Of a DNA stretch of 64,000 nt, positions 2,818 to 50,660 are shown piece by piece. The position numbers were made by a program, and so were the translations under genes. This DNA comes from an uncultured Eubacteriales bacterium (GTDB lineage: Bacteria > Bacillota > Clostridia > Christensenellales > CAG-138), in NCBI GenBank assembly GCA_902792295.1, contig CADAZC010000004.1, forward strand, positions 8,083 to 72,082, written 5' to 3'. The notes beneath the pieces are model-generated. The model had not been told where the DNA came from. It did no database searches and saw only the letters and a list, made by a program, of their open reading frames with translations. Within the stretch, counting starts at the first letter, position 1. Each line of letters opens with the position of its first letter.

Positions 2818-3533
2818 AGCTTTCCCTCCCGAAGCTTTGAAAACAGCGCGTGCCGCACTGCGTTCGGATCGGTCTCGTCGGTGTCGAGCGTCATCGTGCC
2901 GCCCGCATCGCCGATTTCCCAAAGGCGATGCGCGTCCGAGCAGACGACGATCGTTCTCCCTTCGGCGAGTCCGGCGTTTTCGCGATCGCGAAGCTCCGCA
3001 ATCGGAAACGCAGGTTCCGGCGGAAATGCGCCGAGCACCGCCAGAAGCCCGTTTGCGTCGCGGTCGATGTGCGCCGGCCAGCAGACCCCGTGAAACGATG
3101 CGACCAGGTCGGCGGCAGACGAAAGATCCAGATCCGTTGCAGCGGGGAGAAAGTACGGATCCTCTCCGATCTTTTCGTCCCGCTCGTTCAGGATCGGCTG
3201 TTCGCCGAAGACCTCAACGCGGTTTTTGATCTTCATCCGGTGCTCCTTCACCGCCGCGCCGAAGGCAAGCGCCTCGTCAAGCGTTTCAAAGATGCACAGC
3301 AGATGAATATCCTCCGCCGTCGTCAGTTCCATGCCCGCGATCGGCACAATGCCGTATTCTTTGCATGCCGCGAAGAATGCCGGACAGTTGTCGACCGAGT
3401 TGTGGTCGGTCAGCGCAACGATGCCGAGTCCGACGAGATGCGCCATCCCCGCGATGTTGCAGGGCGTCATGTCCATGTCTCCGCAGGGAGACAGGCACGA
3501 ATGCAGATGCAGATCGTACGCAGCCGTCCTCAT
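2814..3533 (-). CDS. PHP-domain phosphoesterase
   Basis: 239 aa. It has DLHLHSCLSPCGD, ALTDHN and CSDAH metal-ligand motifs of the PHP fold. It overlaps both neighbouring genes by 4 nt. Confidence 0.8.
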   Translation of the reverse strand: MRTAAYDLHLHSCLSPCGDMDMTPCNIAGMAHLVGLGIVALTDHNSVDNCPAFFAACKEYGIVPIAGMELTTAEDIHLLCIFETLDEALAFGAAVKEHRMKIKNRVEVFGEQPILNERDEKIGEDPYFLPAATDLDLSSAADLVASFHGVCWPAHIDRDANGLLAVLGAFPPEPAFPIAELRDRENAGLAEGRTIVVCSDAHRLWEIGDAGGTMTLDTDETDPNAVRHALFSKLREGKL

Positions 3534-19266: not shown

Positions 19267-19622
19267 GGGGGCGAAATGGTTTCGACGGGGATCGCGGAAG
19301 TGGGATCAGCGAGCCGAAGCCCCGTGCTTCGTTAAAAACGGGAACTGTCTAAAATAACTGACAACAATCACACTCAACTCGCAGCTGCATAAACGCAGCT
19401 ACGCGTCCGCCCGAAGAAACTTACCGCTTCGGAACCGGGCGTCATCAGGGTAGGGAACGAACCTGCGTAAGCTTTGCCGCAGGCCGGACTTCATGAAGCT
19501 ACCGTAACGCGGAGCCTGTCGGAGGGCGCCGCGCGAGGGGAATCCCAAAACACCGACTGCGCTCGGAGAAGATCCTGCCAACGGATTTTCGGACGGGAGT
19601 TCGACTCTCCCCGCCTCCACCA
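19267..19622 (+). ncRNA. ssrA: tmRNA (transfer-messenger RNA), CCA encoded
   Basis: The 5' GGGGGCG pairs with the 3' CGCCTCC-ACCA, including the G3:U pair. GGTTTCGACGGGG lies near the 5' end and the T-arm is GGGAGTTCGACTCTCCC. The tag ORF at 19360-19392 reads DNNHTQLAAA-stop. The gene lies directly downstream of smpB. Confidence 0.92.
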
Positions 19623-19626
19623 AAAA

Positions 19627-19661
19627 GAAAACAGGGCATTCCGATGCCCTGTTTTCTTTTT
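19627..19661 (+). terminator. intrinsic terminator of ssrA
   Basis: A 13-bp stem pairs GAAAACAGGGCAT with ATGCCCTGTTTTC around a TCCG loop, followed by T5. Confidence 0.85.
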
Positions 19662-19754
19662 CCGATAACAAGGGGAGAGTCGAACCGGCGCGGGGGTGAA
19701 TGAAGCCGCAGTGCGGCTTCAGAGCCGCGCCGTGACCGAGCCGCAGCGAGAGGA

Positions 19755-19774
19755 GACTCCCCCCGCCTCCACCA
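19755..19774 (+). repeat. direct copy (19/20) of the terminal 20 nt of ssrA
   Basis: GACTCCCCCCGCCTCCACCA here compares with GACTCTCCCCGCCTCCACCA at 19603-19622. A perfect inverted copy of tmRNA 19599-19612 also lies at 19672-19685. Confidence 0.85.
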
Positions 19775-19775
19775 C

Positions 19776-19814
19776 GTCGCCGCGAACGTCGCATCGCTCG
19801 CGGCGACTTTTTTT
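19776..19814 (+). terminator. second intrinsic terminator, directly after the ssrA 3'-end copy
   Basis: GTCGCCGCGA (19776-19785) pairs with TCGCGGCGAC (19798-19807), followed by T7. Confidence 0.8.
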
Positions 19815-20003
19815 GCTTTGCTGAAAAGTCACCGCTTGCCCTCTCCGTTGCGGCTCCTTTCCGCAGTCGATCACGCTTGCTTCAGCTGCTCGTTTGTAAA
19901 CGCACTCGCAACGCTTCCGCTGCGCTACCAATCGCCTGCGGGATTCCCGCGCCGTGACCGAGCCGTGGAAAGAGTTGCGGTGCGCCGTCGGCGCTGCAAG
20001 CGG

Positions 20004-20036
20004 AAAAAAGAAGAACCCCGGCGATCTGCCGGGGTG
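20004..20036 (-). terminator. intrinsic terminator of the CotH-family gene
   Basis: On the minus strand, ACCCCGGC pairs with GCCGGGGT (20015-20035), followed by a T-rich run (plus-strand A-run 20004-20014). Confidence 0.8.
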
Positions 20037-20041
20037 TTTTC

Positions 20042-27599: not shown

Positions 27600-29342
27600 A
27601 TGAACAAAAAACATGTATTTTGGCTGCTGCCGCTTCTGTCGGCGCTCCTGATTCTGTGTCTCGCATGCAACGGATCGGGAACCGACACGCAGGTGGATTA
27701 CAATCCGAGCACCGGCGAAAAGATCGATCCGAACAGCTCCGCACAAACAGAGCAGATTTCGATCGTAACGCCCGAGCCCGATCTGCATCGGGAGGAGCTC
27801 GACGCGATTCTGAAGCGCACCACCATGCTTGAGGGCGTTACCGTCAACGGCGTGAATGTCGGCGGCATGACGAAGGAAGAAGCGAAGGCAGCCGTTCTGC
27901 CGTCGCTGGAAGAAAGCAAAAAGGCGCTGTGCATCAACGTCACGCTCGGCGATGCTTCCGAGGCGTTCTCCGGCGAAACAATCGCAACGACGGACAACCT
28001 CGACGAGCTGATCGAAGAGGCTTTCAATCTCGTGCGTGAAGACAAGGGCTTTGAAGCCGTCTCCGCCGAGGTCGAACAGATCAAGGCGCAGGGAAAGGAT
28101 TTCCCCATTACGCTCGCATTCGACGAGGAAGCCCTGAAAGCCGCGGTGAACGCGTTTGCAGACGCGCATGACACCAAGCCGGTCGACGCATCCTTTGCCT
28201 ATAACAAGAAGGAAAACAAGATCGAATTCACGCAGGACGTTCCCGGACGCACCGTTGACCGTGAAGCGCTCCTTGCCGCGCTGCTCAATGCGCAGGCAGG
28301 CGAAACGCTGACGGCGCCCGCAGAAGAGACGGCTGCGGCGATTACGCTTGCAAATGCGAAGGAACACTATGTTCTGCGCAAGTCCTATACGACCAATTAC
28401 AGCAAGAGCAACAAAAACCGTAAGGAAAATATCCGCCACGGCGCTATGGACCTTCTGACCGGTACGGTCGTTCACCCCGGCGAGGTCTTTTCCATGAACC
28501 AGTGTCTCGGCACCCGCAGAAACGACGGACATTGGAAGATCGCGACCGCGTTCCAGCAGGGCAAGCACGTCAAGGAATACGGCGGCGGCGTCTGTCAGAT
28601 CTCGTCCACGCTCTATAACTGCGCGGTTATGGCGGATATGGAGATCGTTTTCCGTCAGAATCACTCGATGCCGGTCGACTATGTCGACAAGGGACGCGAC
28701 GCCACGATCAATTCCCTCGGCAACATCATTGATTTTAAGTTCAGAAACTCCAGCAAAGCGGATATCCTCATCATTGCGAACGCAAACGGAAGCACCCTGA
28801 CCATCGAAATCTGGGGCATCCCGATCATTGAGGACTCCAACGGCGAGTATGACGAGATCCGCATCCCGACGCCCAAGAAGACAAAGACGCTGAAGCCGTC
28901 CGGCGAGGTACTCTATACGGTCGACGCCTCCAAGCCGGTCGGATACAAAGAAAAGGTTGCGGGCAGACGCGACGGTTCCGTTTGGCAGAGCATGAAGGAA
29001 TACTACCTGAACGGTGTTCTCGTCAAGAGCGAAAAGCTCGCGGTTTCGACCTACAAGGCGTACGCCGGCGAATACATCGTCGGTCCGGATGCAACGGAAG
29101 CGCCCGACACGCCGAAGCCCAGCGATCCGGGTTCCGATACCCCGAAGCCCAGCGATCCGGGTTCCGATACCCCGAAACCGAGTGATCCGGGCTCCGATAC
29201 GCCCAAGCCCACCGAAGAACCGACGACGCCGAAGCCCACGGAGGAACCGCCGAAACCCACGGAGGAGCCGACGACGCCGAAGCCCACCGAGGAACCGCCG
29301 AAGCCGACCGAACCTTCCGGCGGCGACGACGGCGGAGAATAA
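27600..29342 (+). CDS. VanW-family lipoprotein with a G5 domain and a Pro-rich repeat tail
   Basis: 580 aa with a lipobox-like LCLAC. The VanW core has GGGVCQISSTLYN. A G5-like region is followed by PSDPGSDTPK x3 and PTEEP(TT)PK repeats. Confidence 0.85.
   Translation: MNKKHVFWLLPLLSALLILCLACNGSGTDTQVDYNPSTGEKIDPNSSAQTEQISIVTPEPDLHREELDAILKRTTMLEGVTVNGVNVGGMTKEEAKAAVLPSLEESKKALCINVTLGDASEAFSGETIATTDNLDELIEEAFNLVREDKGFEAVSAEVEQIKAQGKDFPITLAFDEEALKAAVNAFADAHDTKPVDASFAYNKKENKIEFTQDVPGRTVDREALLAALLNAQAGETLTAPAEETAAAITLANAKEHYVLRKSYTTNYSKSNKNRKENIRHGAMDLLTGTVVHPGEVFSMNQCLGTRRNDGHWKIATAFQQGKHVKEYGGGVCQISSTLYNCAVMADMEIVFRQNHSMPVDYVDKGRDATINSLGNIIDFKFRNSSKADILIIANANGSTLTIEIWGIPIIEDSNGEYDEIRIPTPKKTKTLKPSGEVLYTVDASKPVGYKEKVAGRRDGSVWQSMKEYYLNGVLVKSEKLAVSTYKAYAGEYIVGPDATEAPDTPKPSDPGSDTPKPSDPGSDTPKPSDPGSDTPKPTEEPTTPKPTEEPPKPTEEPTTPKPTEEPPKPTEPSGGDDGGE
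29111..29200 (+). repeat. 3 x 30-bp in-frame tandem repeat (PKPSDPGSDT units), followed by a looser ~48-bp repeat running to about 29310
   Basis: CCGAAGCCCAGCGATCCGGGTTCCGATACC occurs at 29111-29140 and 29141-29170. A diverged third copy lies at 29171-29200. Confidence 0.9.
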
Positions 29343-34129: not shown

Positions 34130-35773
34130 GTGAATCTAACCGAATTGGAAGTATTGACGATCAACGAGCTGTATTCGCTTGCGAAACAGCACGGGATTCC
34201 CTCTTTCCGCAAATACAAAAAAGCCCAGCTGATTGAGCTTTTGCAGGCGCCCGCGCCGGAAAAGAAAAAGCGCGGCAGACCGGCGAAAACCGCCGTGCCC
34301 GAAAAAGAAGCGCCCGCGCCGGAAGAAAAAGCGCCGAAAAAGCGCGGCAGACCGGCGAAAACCGCCGTGCCCGAAAAAGAAGCGCCTGCGCCGCAGCCCG
34401 AAGCGCCTGCGGAACAGCCCGCTGCGCCCGAAAAGCCACAGGAGCGTCCGAACGCCGAACCGTACCGCCGCGGCAATTTCCGTCCGCAGAACAACCGGCA
34501 GAACCAGAACCGCGCGTACCGGAACAACCGCCAGCCGTATCATGCGCCGGAAAGCGAGCAGAAGCCCGAAAAGCCCGCGGAGCCCGTTTCCCTTCCCGAG
34601 ACCGGCACCGCCGCAGGCGTGCTGGAAATCATGGAGGGCTACGGTTTTCTGCGCGTGCAGAATTACGACGCCGGTCCGAACGACGTGTACGTCGCAAATG
34701 CGCAGATCCGCCGCTGCAATCTGAAAAACGGCGATTTCGTGGAAGGGCGCACCCGTGCGCGCCGCGAAGGCGACAAATACGAAGCGCTTTTGTATGTGGA
34801 CCGCGTGAACGGCAGGGATCCGGACGAGAATGCGCAAAGCCGCGTCAACTACGAGGACCTCGTCCCCATCTTCCCGAACGAGCGCTACACGCTGGAAACG
34901 CCCGGCAGAGCAAATAATCTGTCCGTGCGGCTCATCGACCTGATCGCGCCGATCGGCAAGGGACAGCGCGCGATGATCGTGTCGCAGCCGAAAGCGGGCA
35001 AAACGACGCTCTTAAAGCAGATCGCAAACGGCATCACGGAAAATTATCCCGACACGCATCTCATCGTGCTGCTCATTGACGAGCGCCCCGAAGAGGTCAC
35101 CGATATGCGCCGCAGCATCAAGGGCGAGGTCGTTGCGTCCACGTTCGACGAGCTTCCCGAGCATCATACGCGCATTGCGGAAATGGTACAGGAGCGCGCC
35201 ATGCGTCTTGTGGAAAACGGCAAGGACGTCGTGATCCTTCTGGACTCGCTGACGCGTCTCACCCGCGCATACAACCTGGTCATCCCGCCGACCGGACGCA
35301 CGCTGTCCGGCGGTATGGACCCGGGTGCGCTGCACAAGCCGAAGCGCTTTTTCGGCGCGGCAAGAAACATCGAAAACGGCGGGAGTTTGACCGTGATCGC
35401 GACGGCGCTGGTCGAAACCGGCAGCCGCATGGACGACATCGTCTATGAGGAATTCAAGGGCACGGGCAACATGGAGATCCACCTTGACAGGCGGCTCAGC
35501 GAAAAACGCATCTTCCCCGCGATCGACGTGTATAAATCCGGCACGCGGCGCGACGATCTGCTTCTCTCGCAAACGGAGCTCGACGGCGTGCGGATGCTCA
35601 GGCGCGTGCTCGCAAACGGCGCGACCGGCGATGTGACCGAGAATCTTGTCAACATGATGGATAAGACCTCGAACAATGAAGAGTTCCTCATCCGTCTGCG
35701 CGAATGGATCCGTATTTTCGAGAAAGAGGGCTACACTTCTTCACACGGACAGCAGAACCGTTACGGCCAGTAA
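34130..35773 (+). CDS. rho: transcription termination factor Rho with an N-terminal insertion domain of about 130 aa
   Basis: GTG start 6 nt after GGAGG. The Rho_N region (LNELYSLAKQHGI) is followed by the insertion, then the CSD (GVLEIMEGYGFLR), Walker A PKAGKT and the RecA-like core. Confidence 0.93.
   Translation: MNLTELEVLTINELYSLAKQHGIPSFRKYKKAQLIELLQAPAPEKKKRGRPAKTAVPEKEAPAPEEKAPKKRGRPAKTAVPEKEAPAPQPEAPAEQPAAPEKPQERPNAEPYRRGNFRPQNNRQNQNRAYRNNRQPYHAPESEQKPEKPAEPVSLPETGTAAGVLEIMEGYGFLRVQNYDAGPNDVYVANAQIRRCNLKNGDFVEGRTRARREGDKYEALLYVDRVNGRDPDENAQSRVNYEDLVPIFPNERYTLETPGRANNLSVRLIDLIAPIGKGQRAMIVSQPKAGKTTLLKQIANGITENYPDTHLIVLLIDERPEEVTDMRRSIKGEVVASTFDELPEHHTRIAEMVQERAMRLVENGKDVVILLDSLTRLTRAYNLVIPPTGRTLSGGMDPGALHKPKRFFGAARNIENGGSLTVIATALVETGSRMDDIVYEEFKGTGNMEIHLDRRLSEKRIFPAIDVYKSGTRRDDLLLSQTELDGVRMLRRVLANGATGDVTENLVNMMDKTSNNEEFLIRLREWIRIFEKEGYTSSHGQQNRYGQ
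34265..34393 (+). repeat. 57-bp direct repeat (56/57 identical) with 72-bp period inside rho, encoding KKRGRPAKTAVPEKEAPAP twice
   Basis: 34265-34321 and 34337-34393 differ at one base. Confidence 0.9.
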
Positions 35774-35871: not shown

Positions 35872-36055
35872 ATGAAGAAAAATATTCATCCGTCTTACGG
35901 CGAAGCGGTCGTGCGCTGTGCCTGCGGCGAGACCCACCAAGGGCGAGCTGAAGGTCGAAATCTGCAGCAAGTGCCACCCGTTCTTCACGGGCCGTCAGAA
36001 GCTGGTCGACAGCGGCGGACGAGTAGATCGCTTCAAGAAGCGCTACGGTCTGTAA
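35872..36055 (+). pseudogene. rpmE: 50S ribosomal protein L31 gene, frameshifted
   Basis: From the ATG at 35872, frame 0 gives [21 protein letters not shown] and then non-L31 sequence. The +1 frame from 35936 gives [39 protein letters not shown]-stop at 36053-36055. About 5 residues between the CxC and CxxC motifs are also missing. Confidence 0.8.
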
Positions 36056-43393: not shown

Positions 43394-43543
43394 TTATAGA
43401 TGCATCATCCGCTGTGTTTTCTGGATGACCTTCTTCCCGTCCCGCTTCATGCGCCGCGGGATATCCGGGTACAGCGTGCACATCGCGGTCGCGGCGGCGG
43501 CTGCGCCGACCGCCATGCCGATTCCGAGCATTGCCATTCGCAT
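43394..43543 (-). CDS. 49-aa small membrane protein (unknown)
   Basis: GAGGTGAT lies 5 nt before the ATG at 43543. The product is MRMAMLGIGMAVGAAAAATAMCTLYPDIPRRMKRDGKKVIQKTQRMMHL, one hydrophobic helix plus a basic tail. Confidence 0.5.
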   Translation of the reverse strand: MRMAMLGIGMAVGAAAAATAMCTLYPDIPRRMKRDGKKVIQKTQRMMHL

Positions 43544-43592: not shown

Positions 43593-43991
43593 TTATTCCG
43601 CTTTCGGCGTTTCCTCTTTTTGTTTTTTTGCACGATAATCCGCGATCGCCGCCTGCACCGCTTCCTGCGCAAGCACCGAGCAGTGGATCTTCACGGGCGG
43701 AAGTCCCTCAAGCGCCTCCACGACCGCTTCGTTGGTCAGCTTTTCGACCTCTGCAAGCGGCTTGCCCTTGATGAGCTCGGTCGCCATCGAGCTGGTCGCG
43801 ATCGCCGCGCCGCAGCCGAAGGTCTTAAACTTGACGTCCTCGACGATCTCATCGTCGTTGATTTTCAAAAACATCTGCATGATGTCGCCGCATTTGGCGT
43901 TGCCGACGGTGCCGACGCCCGACGCATCGGGAATCTCACCGACATTTCTCGGATGCTGAAAATGATCCAAAACTTTTTCCGAATACTGCAT
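43593..43991 (-). CDS. nifU: Fe-S cluster assembly scaffold NifU/IscU
   Basis: The ATG at 43991 overlaps the nifS TAA (TAATG). The three scaffold Cys lie in GNAKCGD, FGCGAAIA and IHCSVLA. Confidence 0.9.
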   Translation of the reverse strand: MQYSEKVLDHFQHPRNVGEIPDASGVGTVGNAKCGDIMQMFLKINDDEIVEDVKFKTFGCGAAIATSSMATELIKGKPLAEVEKLTNEAVVEALEGLPPVKIHCSVLAQEAVQAAIADYRAKKQKEETPKAE

Positions 43992-45188
43992 TATTGTACT
44001 CCTCCTTTGGGATAAATCGGGGACATATCTCTGAGCCGCTGCACGATCGGCGGCAGAATCTCCAGCACATAGTCGATCTCTTCTTCGGTCGTGAACTCCG
44101 AAAGCGTCATGCGAAGCGATCCGTTCGCCTCCTCGTGCGAAATGCCCATGGCGAGCAGCACGTGCGACGGATCGAGCGAACCGGACGTGCACGCGGAGCC
44201 GGATGACGCCGCAACGCCCTTGAGGTCGAGCATCAGCAAAATGCTTTCGCTTTCGATGTAGCGAATGCCGAAGTTGACATTGTTCGGAAGGCGCTTTGTG
44301 CGATCGCCGTTCAGATGCACGGCGGGGATCCTCTCCTCCACGCCCGCGATCAGCTTGTCGCGAAGCGCCGTCATCTTTTTCATGTTCGCTTCAAGGTTCT
44401 CCGTCTGGATCTCCAGCGCCTTTGCAAGACCGACGATGCCGGGGACGTTCTCCGTGCCCGCGCGCTTTTTGTTCTCCTGCCCGCCGCCGGTGATCATTGC
44501 GGGAACGCGGACGCCCTTTCGGATATAGACCGCGCCGACGCCCTTCGGACCGTGGAACTTGTGCGCCGTGAGCGTCAGAAGGTCGATGTTCATGTCCTGC
44601 ACGTCCATCGGGATGTGCCCGATCGCCTGCACCGCGTCGGTATGGAACAGCACGCCCGCTTCACGGCAGACCGCGCCGATCTCCCTGATCGGTTCGATCG
44701 TGCCGACTTCGTTGTTCGCCGTCATGATCGAAACAAGGATCGTTTCGGGACGGATCGCGGCACGCACCGCCTCGGGATCGACGAGACCGTTCTCATCGAC
44801 GTCGAGATACGTGACCGTTATAAGTCCCTTATCCTCGAGTTCGTTGAGCGTATGCAGGATCGCGTGGTGCCGTATGCAGGATCGCGTGGTGCTCGATCTT
44901 CGACGTGATGATGTGATTGCCCTTCTTGCGGTACGCCTGCGCCACGCCGCGCAGGATCATGTTGTCGCCCTCGCTGCCGCCGCCGGTAAAGTAGATCTCG
45001 GCGGGATTCGCCGCATTCAGGCACTTTGCAACCGTGCGCCGCGCGTCGTCCAGTCCCTTGTGCGCGTCGCGCGCAAAGCTGTGGAAGCTCGACGGATTGC
45101 CGTAAAACTCCGTGTAGTACGGGATCATCGCTTCGATGACCTCGGGCAGCACCTTTGTGGTTGCCGCATTGTCAAGATAAACGTGCAT
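43991..45188 (-). pseudogene. nifS: cysteine desulfurase NifS/IscS gene disrupted by a 22-bp tandem duplication
   Basis: The gene is split into a 119-aa ORF (44829-45188) and a 258-aa ORF (43991-44767). Deleting one copy of the duplicated 22-mer restores a continuous ~391-aa NifS with the PLP Lys (TAHKFHGPKG) and catalytic Cys (SSGSACTSG). Confidence 0.85.
44849..44892. repeat. perfect 2 x 22-bp tandem duplication
   Basis: CGTATGCAGGATCGCGTGGTGC occurs at 44849-44870 and again at 44871-44892. Confidence 0.97.
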
Positions 45189-45618
45189 GTTCGATCCTCT
45201 TTTTCTGTTCGATATGATCTTCGGTAAGCTCTCCGACGGTCGTTTCCTCCAGTACGGCGTTGATACGGCTCTGCAGCTTCAGAAACAACGGACGCGCCGA
45301 GCACGTGCAGGCGTTTTCACAGACGTTTGCGCCGCTGCCGATGCAGTCGACCACGTCCGTGCTGCCCTCCAATGCCCGAAGCACCTCCAGAACGCTGATC
45401 TTCAACGGCTCCCTCGTCAACAGATACCCGCCGCTTTTGCCGCGCGCGGTTTTGACGATCCCCGCCTTTTTCAGCGATCGCATGAGCTGCTCGAGATACG
45501 CCTCCGAGATGCCCTGTTCCGTCGCCACCGCCGCAAGCGATACGGGTCCTTCCCCGTAACGCGTCGCAAGCTCGACGACAGCCCGCAATCCGTATGTGCC
45601 TTTCGTTGAAAACTTCAT
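45172..45618 (-). CDS. iscR: Rrf2-family transcriptional regulator (IscR-like)
   Basis: 148 aa. It has the STKGTYGLRA wHTH N-terminus and a Cys cluster CENACTCSARP. It overlaps the nifS start by 17 nt. Confidence 0.85.
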   Translation of the reverse strand: MKFSTKGTYGLRAVVELATRYGEGPVSLAAVATEQGISEAYLEQLMRSLKKAGIVKTARGKSGGYLLTREPLKISVLEVLRALEGSTDVVDCIGSGANVCENACTCSARPLFLKLQSRINAVLEETTVGELTEDHIEQKKRIEHARLS

Positions 45619-45769: not shown

Positions 45770-46939
45770 ATGATCAAAACGGTTTTATGGGACGTCGACG
45801 GAACGCTTCTGGACTTTGAAGCGGCGCAGGCCGCGGCGATGCGCACGCTGTTTTCGGAGTTCGGACTCGGCCCGTGCACGGATGAAATGCTCGCGCGCTA
45901 CGACGCGATCAATCACGGTTTCTGGCAGCGCCTTGAGCGCGGTGAGATCACGAAGCGACAGGTCCTGATCGGACGTTTCGAGCAGTTCTTTAAAGAATAC
46001 GGGATCGACCCCGCCGTTTCCGTACCGTACAATGACCGGTATCAGCTCTGTCTCGGCGACACGATCGTGCACCGCGACGACTGTCTCTCCCTCATCGACC
46101 TGCTGAAGGGCAGGGTTCGTCAGTACATCGTTTCAAACGGCACGGTTGCCGCGCAGACAAAAAAGCTGGACCGCTCCGGCATCGGCAAGCGGATGGACGG
46201 TGTCTTTCTTTCGGAAGCGCTCGGCGCGGAAAAGCCGAGCCCGGCGTTTTTTGAGAAGGTTTTCGATGCGATCGGCCCGGTCGACCGCAGCGAGGTCATG
46301 ATCGTCGGCGATTCGCTGACCAGCGACATGCAGGGCGGCATGAACGCAGGGATCCTGACCTGCTGGTATAACCCGGACGGAATGCCCATCCCCGCGGGTT
46401 ACCGCATCGATTATGTGATCCGGAATCTCAACGAACTGCTGCCGATCCTCGGGCTCGCCCGCGCGCCGCAGATCACGGTCAAGCCGATGGAAACCGACGA
46501 GGAGATCAGGGGCAAGGCGTATGTGCATTGGTCCTGCTGGCACGAGGCATACGCCGGCATCGTCAGTCCGGCGTATCTTGAAAAGCTGACGCTCGAAAAA
46601 TGCGGGCAGATGGCGTTTCAATGGCGGGACAACGTTCTTATTGCAAAGGACGGCGAGCGCGTCGTGGGCTTTGCGGGATACGGCGAATCGGATCCGGACA
46701 CCGGCGAGCTCTTTGCGCTGTACGTTTTGAAAGAATACCGCGGGACCGGCGCTGCGCAGTCGCTGATGAGCGCGGCGGCGGAGAGACTTTCCGCTTACCC
46801 GAAGATCGGACTTTGGGTGCTCAAAGAAAACCCGCGCGCGATCCGCTTCTATGAAAAATGCGGTTTTTCGGCGACCGGCGAGGAGCAGTACCTTCCCTCC
46901 GTCGGGGCGGCGGAGATTCGAATGGTTTTGCATCGATAA
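45770..46939 (+). CDS. HAD-superfamily (YjjG-like) hydrolase fused to a GNAT N-acetyltransferase
   Basis: 389 aa. The HAD motifs are LWDVDGTL, SNG and VGDSLTSD, running to about residue 230. A GNAT fold follows (GELFALYVLKEYRGTGAAQSLM, RAIRFYEKCGF). Confidence 0.8.
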   Translation: MIKTVLWDVDGTLLDFEAAQAAAMRTLFSEFGLGPCTDEMLARYDAINHGFWQRLERGEITKRQVLIGRFEQFFKEYGIDPAVSVPYNDRYQLCLGDTIVHRDDCLSLIDLLKGRVRQYIVSNGTVAAQTKKLDRSGIGKRMDGVFLSEALGAEKPSPAFFEKVFDAIGPVDRSEVMIVGDSLTSDMQGGMNAGILTCWYNPDGMPIPAGYRIDYVIRNLNELLPILGLARAPQITVKPMETDEEIRGKAYVHWSCWHEAYAGIVSPAYLEKLTLEKCGQMAFQWRDNVLIAKDGERVVGFAGYGESDPDTGELFALYVLKEYRGTGAAQSLMSAAAERLSAYPKIGLWVLKENPRAIRFYEKCGFSATGEEQYLPSVGAAEIRMVLHR

Positions 46940-49144: not shown

Positions 49145-50410
49145 TTACCCCCTCTGTATCGAGTTCGCAATCTCGTCCGCATCGAGGCGGACCATGACCG
49201 ACTCGCCGTTCGTCATGGATTTCATGTTCGCGGCGTCGTTTTTGATCTCTTCATCGCCGATGACGAGCGTATACAGCGCGCCCGTCTTGTCGGCGTACTT
49301 CATCTGTGCCTTCACGCTGCGGTCCATCAGGTCGAGATCGACCGAAACCCCCAGCTTGCGAAGCGCCCTTGCAAGCGTAAAGCACCGGTCCTTCGCCTCT
49401 GTGCCGAGCCCGATCAGCATCACGTCGTAGCGCACCGGTTTCGGCACCTCCACGCCGAGCTGGCTCATGATGAGCAGCAGGCGCTCCATCCCGAGCCCGA
49501 AGCCGACCGCGGGCATGTCCGGACCGCCCAGTTCCTTGATGAGCCCGTCGTACCGTCCGCCGCCGCACAGCGTTCCCTGCGCGCCCGGCATGCCGGAAAC
49601 GATCTCGAACACGGTTTTGGTGTAGTAATCCAGTCCGCGCACGAGCATCGGATCGATCTCATAGCGGATGCCCGCAAGATCGAGCAGACGCATCAGCTCG
49701 TTCATGTGCGCGCGGCAGTCGTCGCAGACGTAGTCCATGGTGTGCGGCGCGTCCTTCACGATCTCCTTGCAGGTGTCGACCTTGCAGTCGAGAATGCGCA
49801 GCGGGTTCGTCTCAAACCGGCCGCGGCAGGTTTCGCAAAGCTCGTCGAGCCGTCCGCCGAGGTACTCCTTTAATGCCTGCTGATAGCGTGCGCGGCACTT
49901 CGGGCATCCGATGCTGTTCAGTTTAATCGTCAGATCCGAGCAGCCGAGCGTTTCGAAGATCTCCGACGCGATCGAAATGACCTCTGCGTCCGCCGCGGGA
50001 CTCGGCGATCCGAAGATCTCCACGCCGAACTGGTGATGCTCGCGGAGCCGTCCCGCCTGCGGGCGTTCATAGCGGAACACCGGGCAGTAGAGATAATACA
50101 TCTTGGTGGGCTGCGCTTCGGAAAAGAGTCCGTTTTCCACGAACATGCGCACTGCACCCGCCGTGCCCTCGGGCTTTAACGTGATGCTGCGGTCGCCCTT
50201 GTCCGTGAACGTATACATTTCCTTCTGCACGATATCCGTCGTGTCGCCCACGCCGCGCAGAAACAGCTCGGTGTGCTCGATGCACGGGGTACGCGCTTCC
50301 AGAAGCCCGTACTTTCTGACGATCTTACGGATCGTGCTTTCCAGATACTGCCAGCGATAGCTCTCCTCCGGGAGAACGTCCTTTGTGCCTTTCGGCGCTT
50401 TGTATGCCAT
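49145..50410 (-). CDS. hisS: histidine--tRNA ligase
   Basis: 421 aa with PKGTKD, FRYERPQAGR and GGGRYD motifs. Confidence 0.93.
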   Translation of the reverse strand: MAYKAPKGTKDVLPEESYRWQYLESTIRKIVRKYGLLEARTPCIEHTELFLRGVGDTTDIVQKEMYTFTDKGDRSITLKPEGTAGAVRMFVENGLFSEAQPTKMYYLYCPVFRYERPQAGRLREHHQFGVEIFGSPSPAADAEVISIASEIFETLGCSDLTIKLNSIGCPKCRARYQQALKEYLGGRLDELCETCRGRFETNPLRILDCKVDTCKEIVKDAPHTMDYVCDDCRAHMNELMRLLDLAGIRYEIDPMLVRGLDYYTKTVFEIVSGMPGAQGTLCGGGRYDGLIKELGGPDMPAVGFGLGMERLLLIMSQLGVEVPKPVRYDVMLIGLGTEAKDRCFTLARALRKLGVSVDLDLMDRSVKAQMKYADKTGALYTLVIGDEEIKNDAANMKSMTNGESVMVRLDADEIANSIQRG

Positions 50411-50655
50411 AGCTTCCTCCTATGAAAAAATCGCGGTCTTCTGCCCCGAATAGGGACGGAAGAACCGCGGTGCCACCCTGATTCGCAGCTTATCGCTGCG
50501 CGCTTTCCCCCGATAACGAAGGGTCTCCGTCATGCCTTTTCCTTCCGGCATGAAGCTTGCGGATGTCCTTCCCGACCGTCTCTCCGCACGCCTTTCAGCC
50601 GCGGGCGCGCTCTCTTTGGGACGATTCGACCGGTACTCTTCCGTTCAACGCTTTG
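50411..50655 (-). promoter_or_regulatory. T-box riboswitch leader of hisS-aspS(-trxA)
   Basis: On the minus strand: AGUA and AGAGAG elements and a GCUGAAAGG distal loop. The Specifier-loop candidate is GAAGGACAUCC. The T-box sequence is AAUCAGGGUGGCACCGCGG (rc of about 50466-50484). A terminator stem (50432-50441 with 50459-50469) is followed by U6. Confidence 0.85.
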
Positions 50656-50660
50656 CGCTT

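Follow-up and report, generated by a model that had tools for sequence, protein, structure and literature searches.

Is the broken nifS gene at this locus a lesion carried by the bacterium, or one introduced into its deposited sequence? The window, that is, the whole 64,000-nucleotide stretch of an uncultured Eubacteriales genome analysed here, encodes a cysteine desulfurase whose reading frame is split by a perfect 22-bp tandem duplication. The first-pass annotation of this DNA had noticed the duplication and left three explanations standing: a real loss-of-function allele, a reversible duplication, and an artefact of assembly or consensus calling.

The interrupted gene and its repair

The two copies of the 22-mer, which the first-pass annotation had placed back to back, were reproduced at 100% identity across 44849–44892 (Table 1). 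The novel junction at 44870/44871 reads CCTGCATACG joined directly to GCACCACGCG, and the corresponding single-copy context is GATCGAGCACCACGCGATCCTGCATACGCTCAACG. No third copy of CGTATGCAGGATCGCGTGGTGC lies elsewhere in the 64-kb window on either strand. Bases i and i+22 agree over a run of exactly 22 positions, so the borders of the unit are unambiguous and the flanking microhomology is 0 bp. A search of these borders for a hairpin or direct-repeat template returned only trivial matches of 8–9 nt, none of which accounts for the event, and the wild-type site is unique sequence with no prior repeat tract. Both copies carry the species' own allele (GCACCACG...), where the sister species has GCATCACG, and the duplicate was thus copied from resident sequence.

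Given the base composition of the window, chance alone would produce 6.9e-9 perfect 22-bp tandem duplications in 64 kb. The 22-bp duplication is the only one of its length in the window, too few to show a recurring k−1 (k = 23) overlap signature of concatenated graph contigs. Among perfect tandem repeats with periods of 12 bp or longer, the window has just one more, a coding 30-bp repeat at 29112. Towards its 3′ end, a VanW/PG_binding_4 protein gene contains coding tandem repeats of 27–48 bp that form a Pro/Thr/Glu/Lys-rich linker.

Table 1. Coordinates of the nifS locus and other features of the window, with indels relative to the closest strain
Feature	Position	Strand	Description
Rrf2-family (IscR/CymR-like) regulator	45172..45618	(-)	First operon gene, overlaps nifS start; TIGR00738, 131 bits
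nifS, 5′ fragment	44829..45188	(-)	119 aa: 106 native residues, 13 out-of-frame residues (APRDPAYAQRTRG), stop
22-bp unit, copy 1	44849..44870	(-)	Plus strand CGTATGCAGGATCGCGTGGTGC, coding strand GCACCACGCGATCCTGCATACG
22-bp unit, copy 2	44871..44892	(-)	Same as copy 1
nifS, 3′ remainder	43991..44848	(-)	Other frame; residues 107–391
Longest ORF in nifS 3′ remainder	43991..44767	(-)	258 aa, GTG start
nifU scaffold	43593..43991	(-)	132 aa; TIGR03419 NifU_clost, 201 bits (cutoff 188)
Small ORF between nifU and yajC	43394..43543	(-)	49 aa, no Pfam match
HAD-hydrolase/GNAT-acetyltransferase fusion gene	45770..46939	(+)	389 aa, adjoins the Rrf2 regulator
hisS	49145..50410		
T-box leader	50449..50657	(-)	Rfam RF00230, 114 bits; upstream of hisS
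rpmE (ribosomal protein L31)	35872..36055	(+)	Private 14-bp deletion between 35933 and 35934, CTTCCTTACCGGCT missing
rho	34130..35773	(+)	
rho, N-terminal K/E/P/A-rich tandem-repeat insert	34247..34428		
VanW/PG_binding_4 protein gene	27600..29342	(+)	
Coding tandem repeats in the VanW/PG_binding_4 protein gene	29104..29312		27–48 bp
tmRNA gene	19267..19622		
tmRNA gene with the strain-variable site after it	19267..20041		Site nearly empty in the window
Indel in nifS relative to closest strain			+22 bp, frame-breaking
Indel in rho relative to closest strain			+3 bp, in frame, in the K/E/P/A-rich repeat
Indel in rpmE relative to closest strain			-14 bp, frame-breaking

As the first-pass annotation had read it, the coding strand runs through ...SKIEHHAILHT, where the native part ends, and passes into the aberrant tail APRDPAYAQRTRG and a stop. 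The truncated product keeps the EHHA motif but has neither the PLP lysine nor the catalytic cysteine; HTDAVQ (175), K203 in AHKFHGPKG and C326 in SSGSACTS are all encoded by the 3′ remainder. An uninterrupted ORF for the whole enzyme is not present in the sequence as deposited, in which the frame breaks after residue 106, and nifS in the deposited record is a pseudogene.

Deleting one copy yields an ORF of 1176 nt that joins the 119-aa and 258-aa ORFs into a NifS of 391 aa with both the PLP lysine and the catalytic cysteine, an outcome that had been predicted from the first reading. With one copy removed, the protein scores 577.1 bits against the TIGR03402 equivalog model (cutoff 530.75), covering model positions 1–379 of 379. 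Residues 3–387 align with solved cysteine desulfurases (E = 1e-126), and in the solved desulfurase 9wep the segments matching those of K203 (TAHKFHGPKG) and C326 (SSGSACTS) are AHKMYGPKG and ASGSAC. The repaired protein also matches a public protein (P0121, encoded on three contigs) at every residue. By these likenesses the repaired gene would specify an ordinary NifS-type (class I, PLP-dependent) cysteine desulfurase, predicted to be active and to transfer sulfur to NifU.

Operon context

The Rrf2-family regulator and the NifU-type scaffold flank nifS on one strand, with genes that overlap or abut, and this order is common to all relatives. The iscR-nifS-nifU operon proposed in the first-pass annotation is borne out by profile matches as Rrf2(IscR-like)-nifS-nifU, the regulator scoring under the cutoffs of both the IscR and the CymR equivalog models. 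Its view of the downstream nifU as intact also holds: the nifU ATG overlaps the nifS stop (TAATG), the gene has its own ribosome-binding site (AAGGAGGAG), and its product matches NifU_clost above cutoff.

The arrangement follows the clostridial Rrf2-nifS(iscS)-nifU(iscU) type, exemplified by cpe1786-cpe1784 of Clostridium perfringens, in the order regulator, desulfurase, NifU_clost scaffold (PMC2940859). The C. perfringens Rrf2-iscS-iscU operon is regarded as the sole Fe-S assembly system of that organism (PMC2940859). Unlike that operon, the present one is interrupted by the duplication after codon 106 of the desulfurase gene, and nifU is followed not by mnmA/trmU but by a conserved 49-aa ORF and then yajC. 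Neither a SUF gene nor a second desulfurase gene is present within the 64-kb window, which encodes a hydrogenase-like protein, a radical SAM protein and a 2Fe-2S protein as Fe-S enzymes.

Several neighbours of the operon have features of their own. Gene calling gives the 49-aa ORF in all conspecific and sister-species contigs that reach past nifU, and its product resembles a small hydrophobic or membrane peptide (MRMAMLGIGMAVGAAAAATAM...). On the other side of the operon, five conspecific contigs (L101, L104, L111, L114 and L116) have a 229-aa HAD gene and three separate GNAT genes in place of the HAD-hydrolase/GNAT-acetyltransferase fusion gene. Further away, hisS is preceded by a T-box leader.

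The same locus in relatives

The comparison set was made up of contigs encoding exactly the window's IscR-like, NifU or HisS proteins, or the repaired NifS. It comprised 33 conspecific loci on 22 distinct contigs from different samples, together with six sister-species contigs. The conspecific contigs share 97.3–99.9% nucleotide identity with the window, are fully syntenic with it, and include the NCBI genome GCA_030529965.1.

Each of the 33 conspecific loci (22 distinct contigs) has one copy of the 22-mer, as does each of the six sister-species contigs. The junction 20-mer is absent from each of the 33 conspecific loci, and none of the six sister-species contigs has the junction. Every conspecific or sister-species contig that spans the whole gene encodes a 391-aa NifS, with 0–2 amino-acid changes across the 22 conspecific contigs. 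Alignment with close relatives likewise shows no split, each relative having an uninterrupted gene of 390–391 aa. More widely, the best 120 homologues listed are all single proteins, nearly all of 387–396 aa, the top one 97% identical; a contig search with the repaired NifS gave relatives at most 78% identical among the matches listed. The species thus keeps nifS intact under purifying selection.

In a collection of 15 billion proteins, the truncated 119-aa product occurs on one contig only, of 83,276 bp and deposited at both NCBI and ENA. The window's other private protein alleles are carried on a contig of this same length, which is therefore evidently the source of the window. The duplication is private to one public record. 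The other member of the cluster to which the 119-aa product belongs (P0226) was considered as a second carrier of the lesion and rejected, being an unrelated, divergent partial sequence in which the lesion is absent. In the JGI metagenomes neither the two-copy junction nor the single-copy context was found; the species is absent from that collection, so failure to find the junction there carries no information.

A second private frameshift

Two scaffolds of a single ENA sample are the closest public contigs; they were rebuilt and compared with positions 3315–64000 of the window. Judging by its name alone, the sample would belong to a cattle-rumen study (PMC6785717). Over ~60 kb the two strains differ by 52 SNPs, of which 29 are synonymous and 14 non-synonymous within 53 kb of called CDS. 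None of the 56 other genes has an internal stop relative to the closest strain, and this, with the excess of synonymous changes, makes purifying selection visible. The SNPs are clustered, as in ordinary strain variation, and the window is free of scattered errors. The repaired nifS CDS differs from that of the closest strain by a single synonymous base, from which it follows that the lesion is recent, as the first-pass annotation had supposed, and has undergone no secondary decay.

Against this background, no 1-bp coding indel separates the two strains over ~60 kb, and only two indels, in nifS and rpmE, break a frame. The rpmE deletion, 9 kb from the nifS lesion and outside its operon, shifts the frame of a 65-aa gene after residue 21. 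Its junction joins GGCGAGAC to CCACCAAGG, with microhomology of at most 1 bp, and the three other conspecific contigs that cover rpmE all retain CTTCCTTACCGGCT. With this second private frameshift, which the first-pass annotation had not seen, the artefact explanation gains weight.

Length variation of other kinds is also seen in the window. The rho gene has one extra in-frame AAA codon at ~34374, in its tandem-repeat insert, compared with the two other contigs covering the site. The site following the tmRNA gene varies between strains, and its cargo in conspecific contigs includes a serine-recombinase island (L133), a GNAT gene and a methyltransferase gene (L131), a gene of the beta-lactamase family (L138), and a 23S_rRNA_IVP gene with a methyltransferase gene (L137). 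It is exactly at this site that the assembly of the closest sample breaks.

Origin of the duplication

The duplication is a one-off, non-adaptive and private lesion that arose either through an error of assembly or as a null mutation of very recent date. An artefact of assembly or consensus calling is put slightly ahead of a genuine recent null allele, and has about an even chance of being correct. A single step copied 22 bases in tandem without microhomology, destroying the nifS frame; on this reading, that step would have taken place during production of the sequence, not in cells. The presumed technical cause may have been an untrimmed overlap at joined contig or consensus-window ends, local reassembly, or polishing. 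The organism itself would then keep a normal 391-aa NifS.

The grounds for the slight lean towards an artefact are as follows. Two private frameshifts of middling size (22 and 14 bp) fall in the conserved core genes nifS and rpmE; purifying selection is visible in the SNPs, yet two frame-breaking indels lie within 9 kb; and 1-bp frameshifts are missing, with microhomology of 0–1 bp at both lesions. Spontaneous frameshifts in bacteria are mostly 1-bp events in homopolymers, and duplications and deletions of middling size usually arise between short direct repeats. Contig or consensus-window joins that are wrongly trimmed, with mis-estimated overlaps or gaps, would be expected to give one gain and one loss, as seen here. 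A literature search on duplication artefacts at assembly joins yielded nothing usable. Such artefacts would resemble the present lesions as perfect gains or losses of 14–22 bp of unique sequence in an otherwise clean contig; the window differs in having no N runs, and it holds one duplication of such a size in 64 kb.

Somewhat short of even, and next in weight, is the chance that the duplication is a genuine and very recent loss-of-function allele in the strain dominating the sampled population. Translation would end after 106 native residues, the operon would supply no functional desulfurase, and nifU might suffer polarity, although it has its own strong ribosome-binding site. Sulfur for Fe-S clusters would come from a SUF system, a second desulfurase, or the direct use of abundant gut or rumen sulfide; alternatively, the allele would be mildly deleterious and transient. 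No backup desulfurase or SUF gene lies within the window to support the first two routes, the window encodes Fe-S enzymes, and the homologous C. perfringens operon is considered the only Fe-S assembly system there (PMC2940859). In favour of a real allele, the duplication stands in the public record itself, the surrounding sequence is clean and free of 1-bp indels over ~60 kb against the closest strain, and the lack of decay agrees with a recent origin.

Spontaneous mutation is known to produce tandem duplications. Most metagenome-assembled genomes are made by De Bruijn graph assemblers from short reads, in which a duplicated stretch of 44 bp needs k-mers from reads. For a source assembled in this way, it is probable that the sample itself contained the allele. 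Frameshift pseudogenes formed by short tandem duplication offer a close likeness, with a perfect copy placed head to tail and of a length not divisible by three, a premature stop, and restoration of the gene by precise loss of one copy. They differ from the present case, in which flanking microhomology is absent, the lesion is private, and rpmE carries a second private frameshift. Two pseudogenised genes out of 59 are within the range of real bacterial genomes; set against this, two lesions beside 14 non-synonymous SNPs would be unusual for a naturally selected strain, the duplication formed without microhomology, and nifS is intact in 22 of 22 conspecific contigs and hence under selection. 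In an improbable reading, the duplication is real and has become fixed in a strain whose abundance allowed an 83-kb contig to assemble. The strain would then be a natural knockout, with a NifS/NifU cysteine-desulfurase route that is dispensable in the sulfide-rich gut or rumen through direct use of sulfide or replacement by a SUF-type system, and collapse of the duplication would permit reversion whenever sulfur from cysteine was required.

Still less probable, and very unlikely overall, is a reversible on/off switch in which slipped-strand gain and loss of one copy would maintain a mixture of nifS-ON and nifS-OFF cells. Replication slippage can remove one of two perfect, adjacent direct repeats with precision, and loss of one copy here would restore the reading frame exactly, much as a change in repeat number toggles the frame at phase-variable contingency loci. 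Those loci carry short tracts in many copies; here there are two copies of a unique 22-bp unit, and one copy in every relative. The wild-type site offers no repeat tract or microhomology that would favour recurrent formation, the forward event would be far rarer than reversion, and a housekeeping gene for Fe-S biogenesis is atypical as a contingency locus. Copy number is invariant across the 33 loci, and the reversible slipped-strand duplication entertained in the first-pass annotation finds no support in the 22 conspecific contigs, none of which varies in copy number.

A functional split, by ribosomes bypassing 22 nt between identical codons or by a two-piece enzyme made from separate fragments, has a negligible chance and was rejected for want of conservation and of start or stop signals: each codon of copy 1 does have an identical landing site 22 nt downstream, but this is geometry only, no stop codon directly follows a take-off codon, the GTG at 44767 has GAGG just 2 nt upstream (a poor spacing for initiation), and the two ORFs would miss residues 107–133 and divide the PLP-binding domain. 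Recoding sites and split genes are features that relatives share, and this arrangement is found in no relative.

Implications

The locus does not represent a new kind of system; short tandem duplications that shift a frame are familiar as mutations and as errors of assembly alike. Private frameshifts affect at least two core genes of the contig, nifS and rpmE, which serves as a quality flag, and conclusions on gene content or metabolism, for instance that the organism 'lacks NifS' or 'lacks L31', are therefore not safe to draw from this genome at face value. The biological weight of the finding is small. A real allele would give a natural example of an anaerobe with a nifS null and would have a modest bearing on the dispensability of cysteine desulfurases where sulfide is plentiful.
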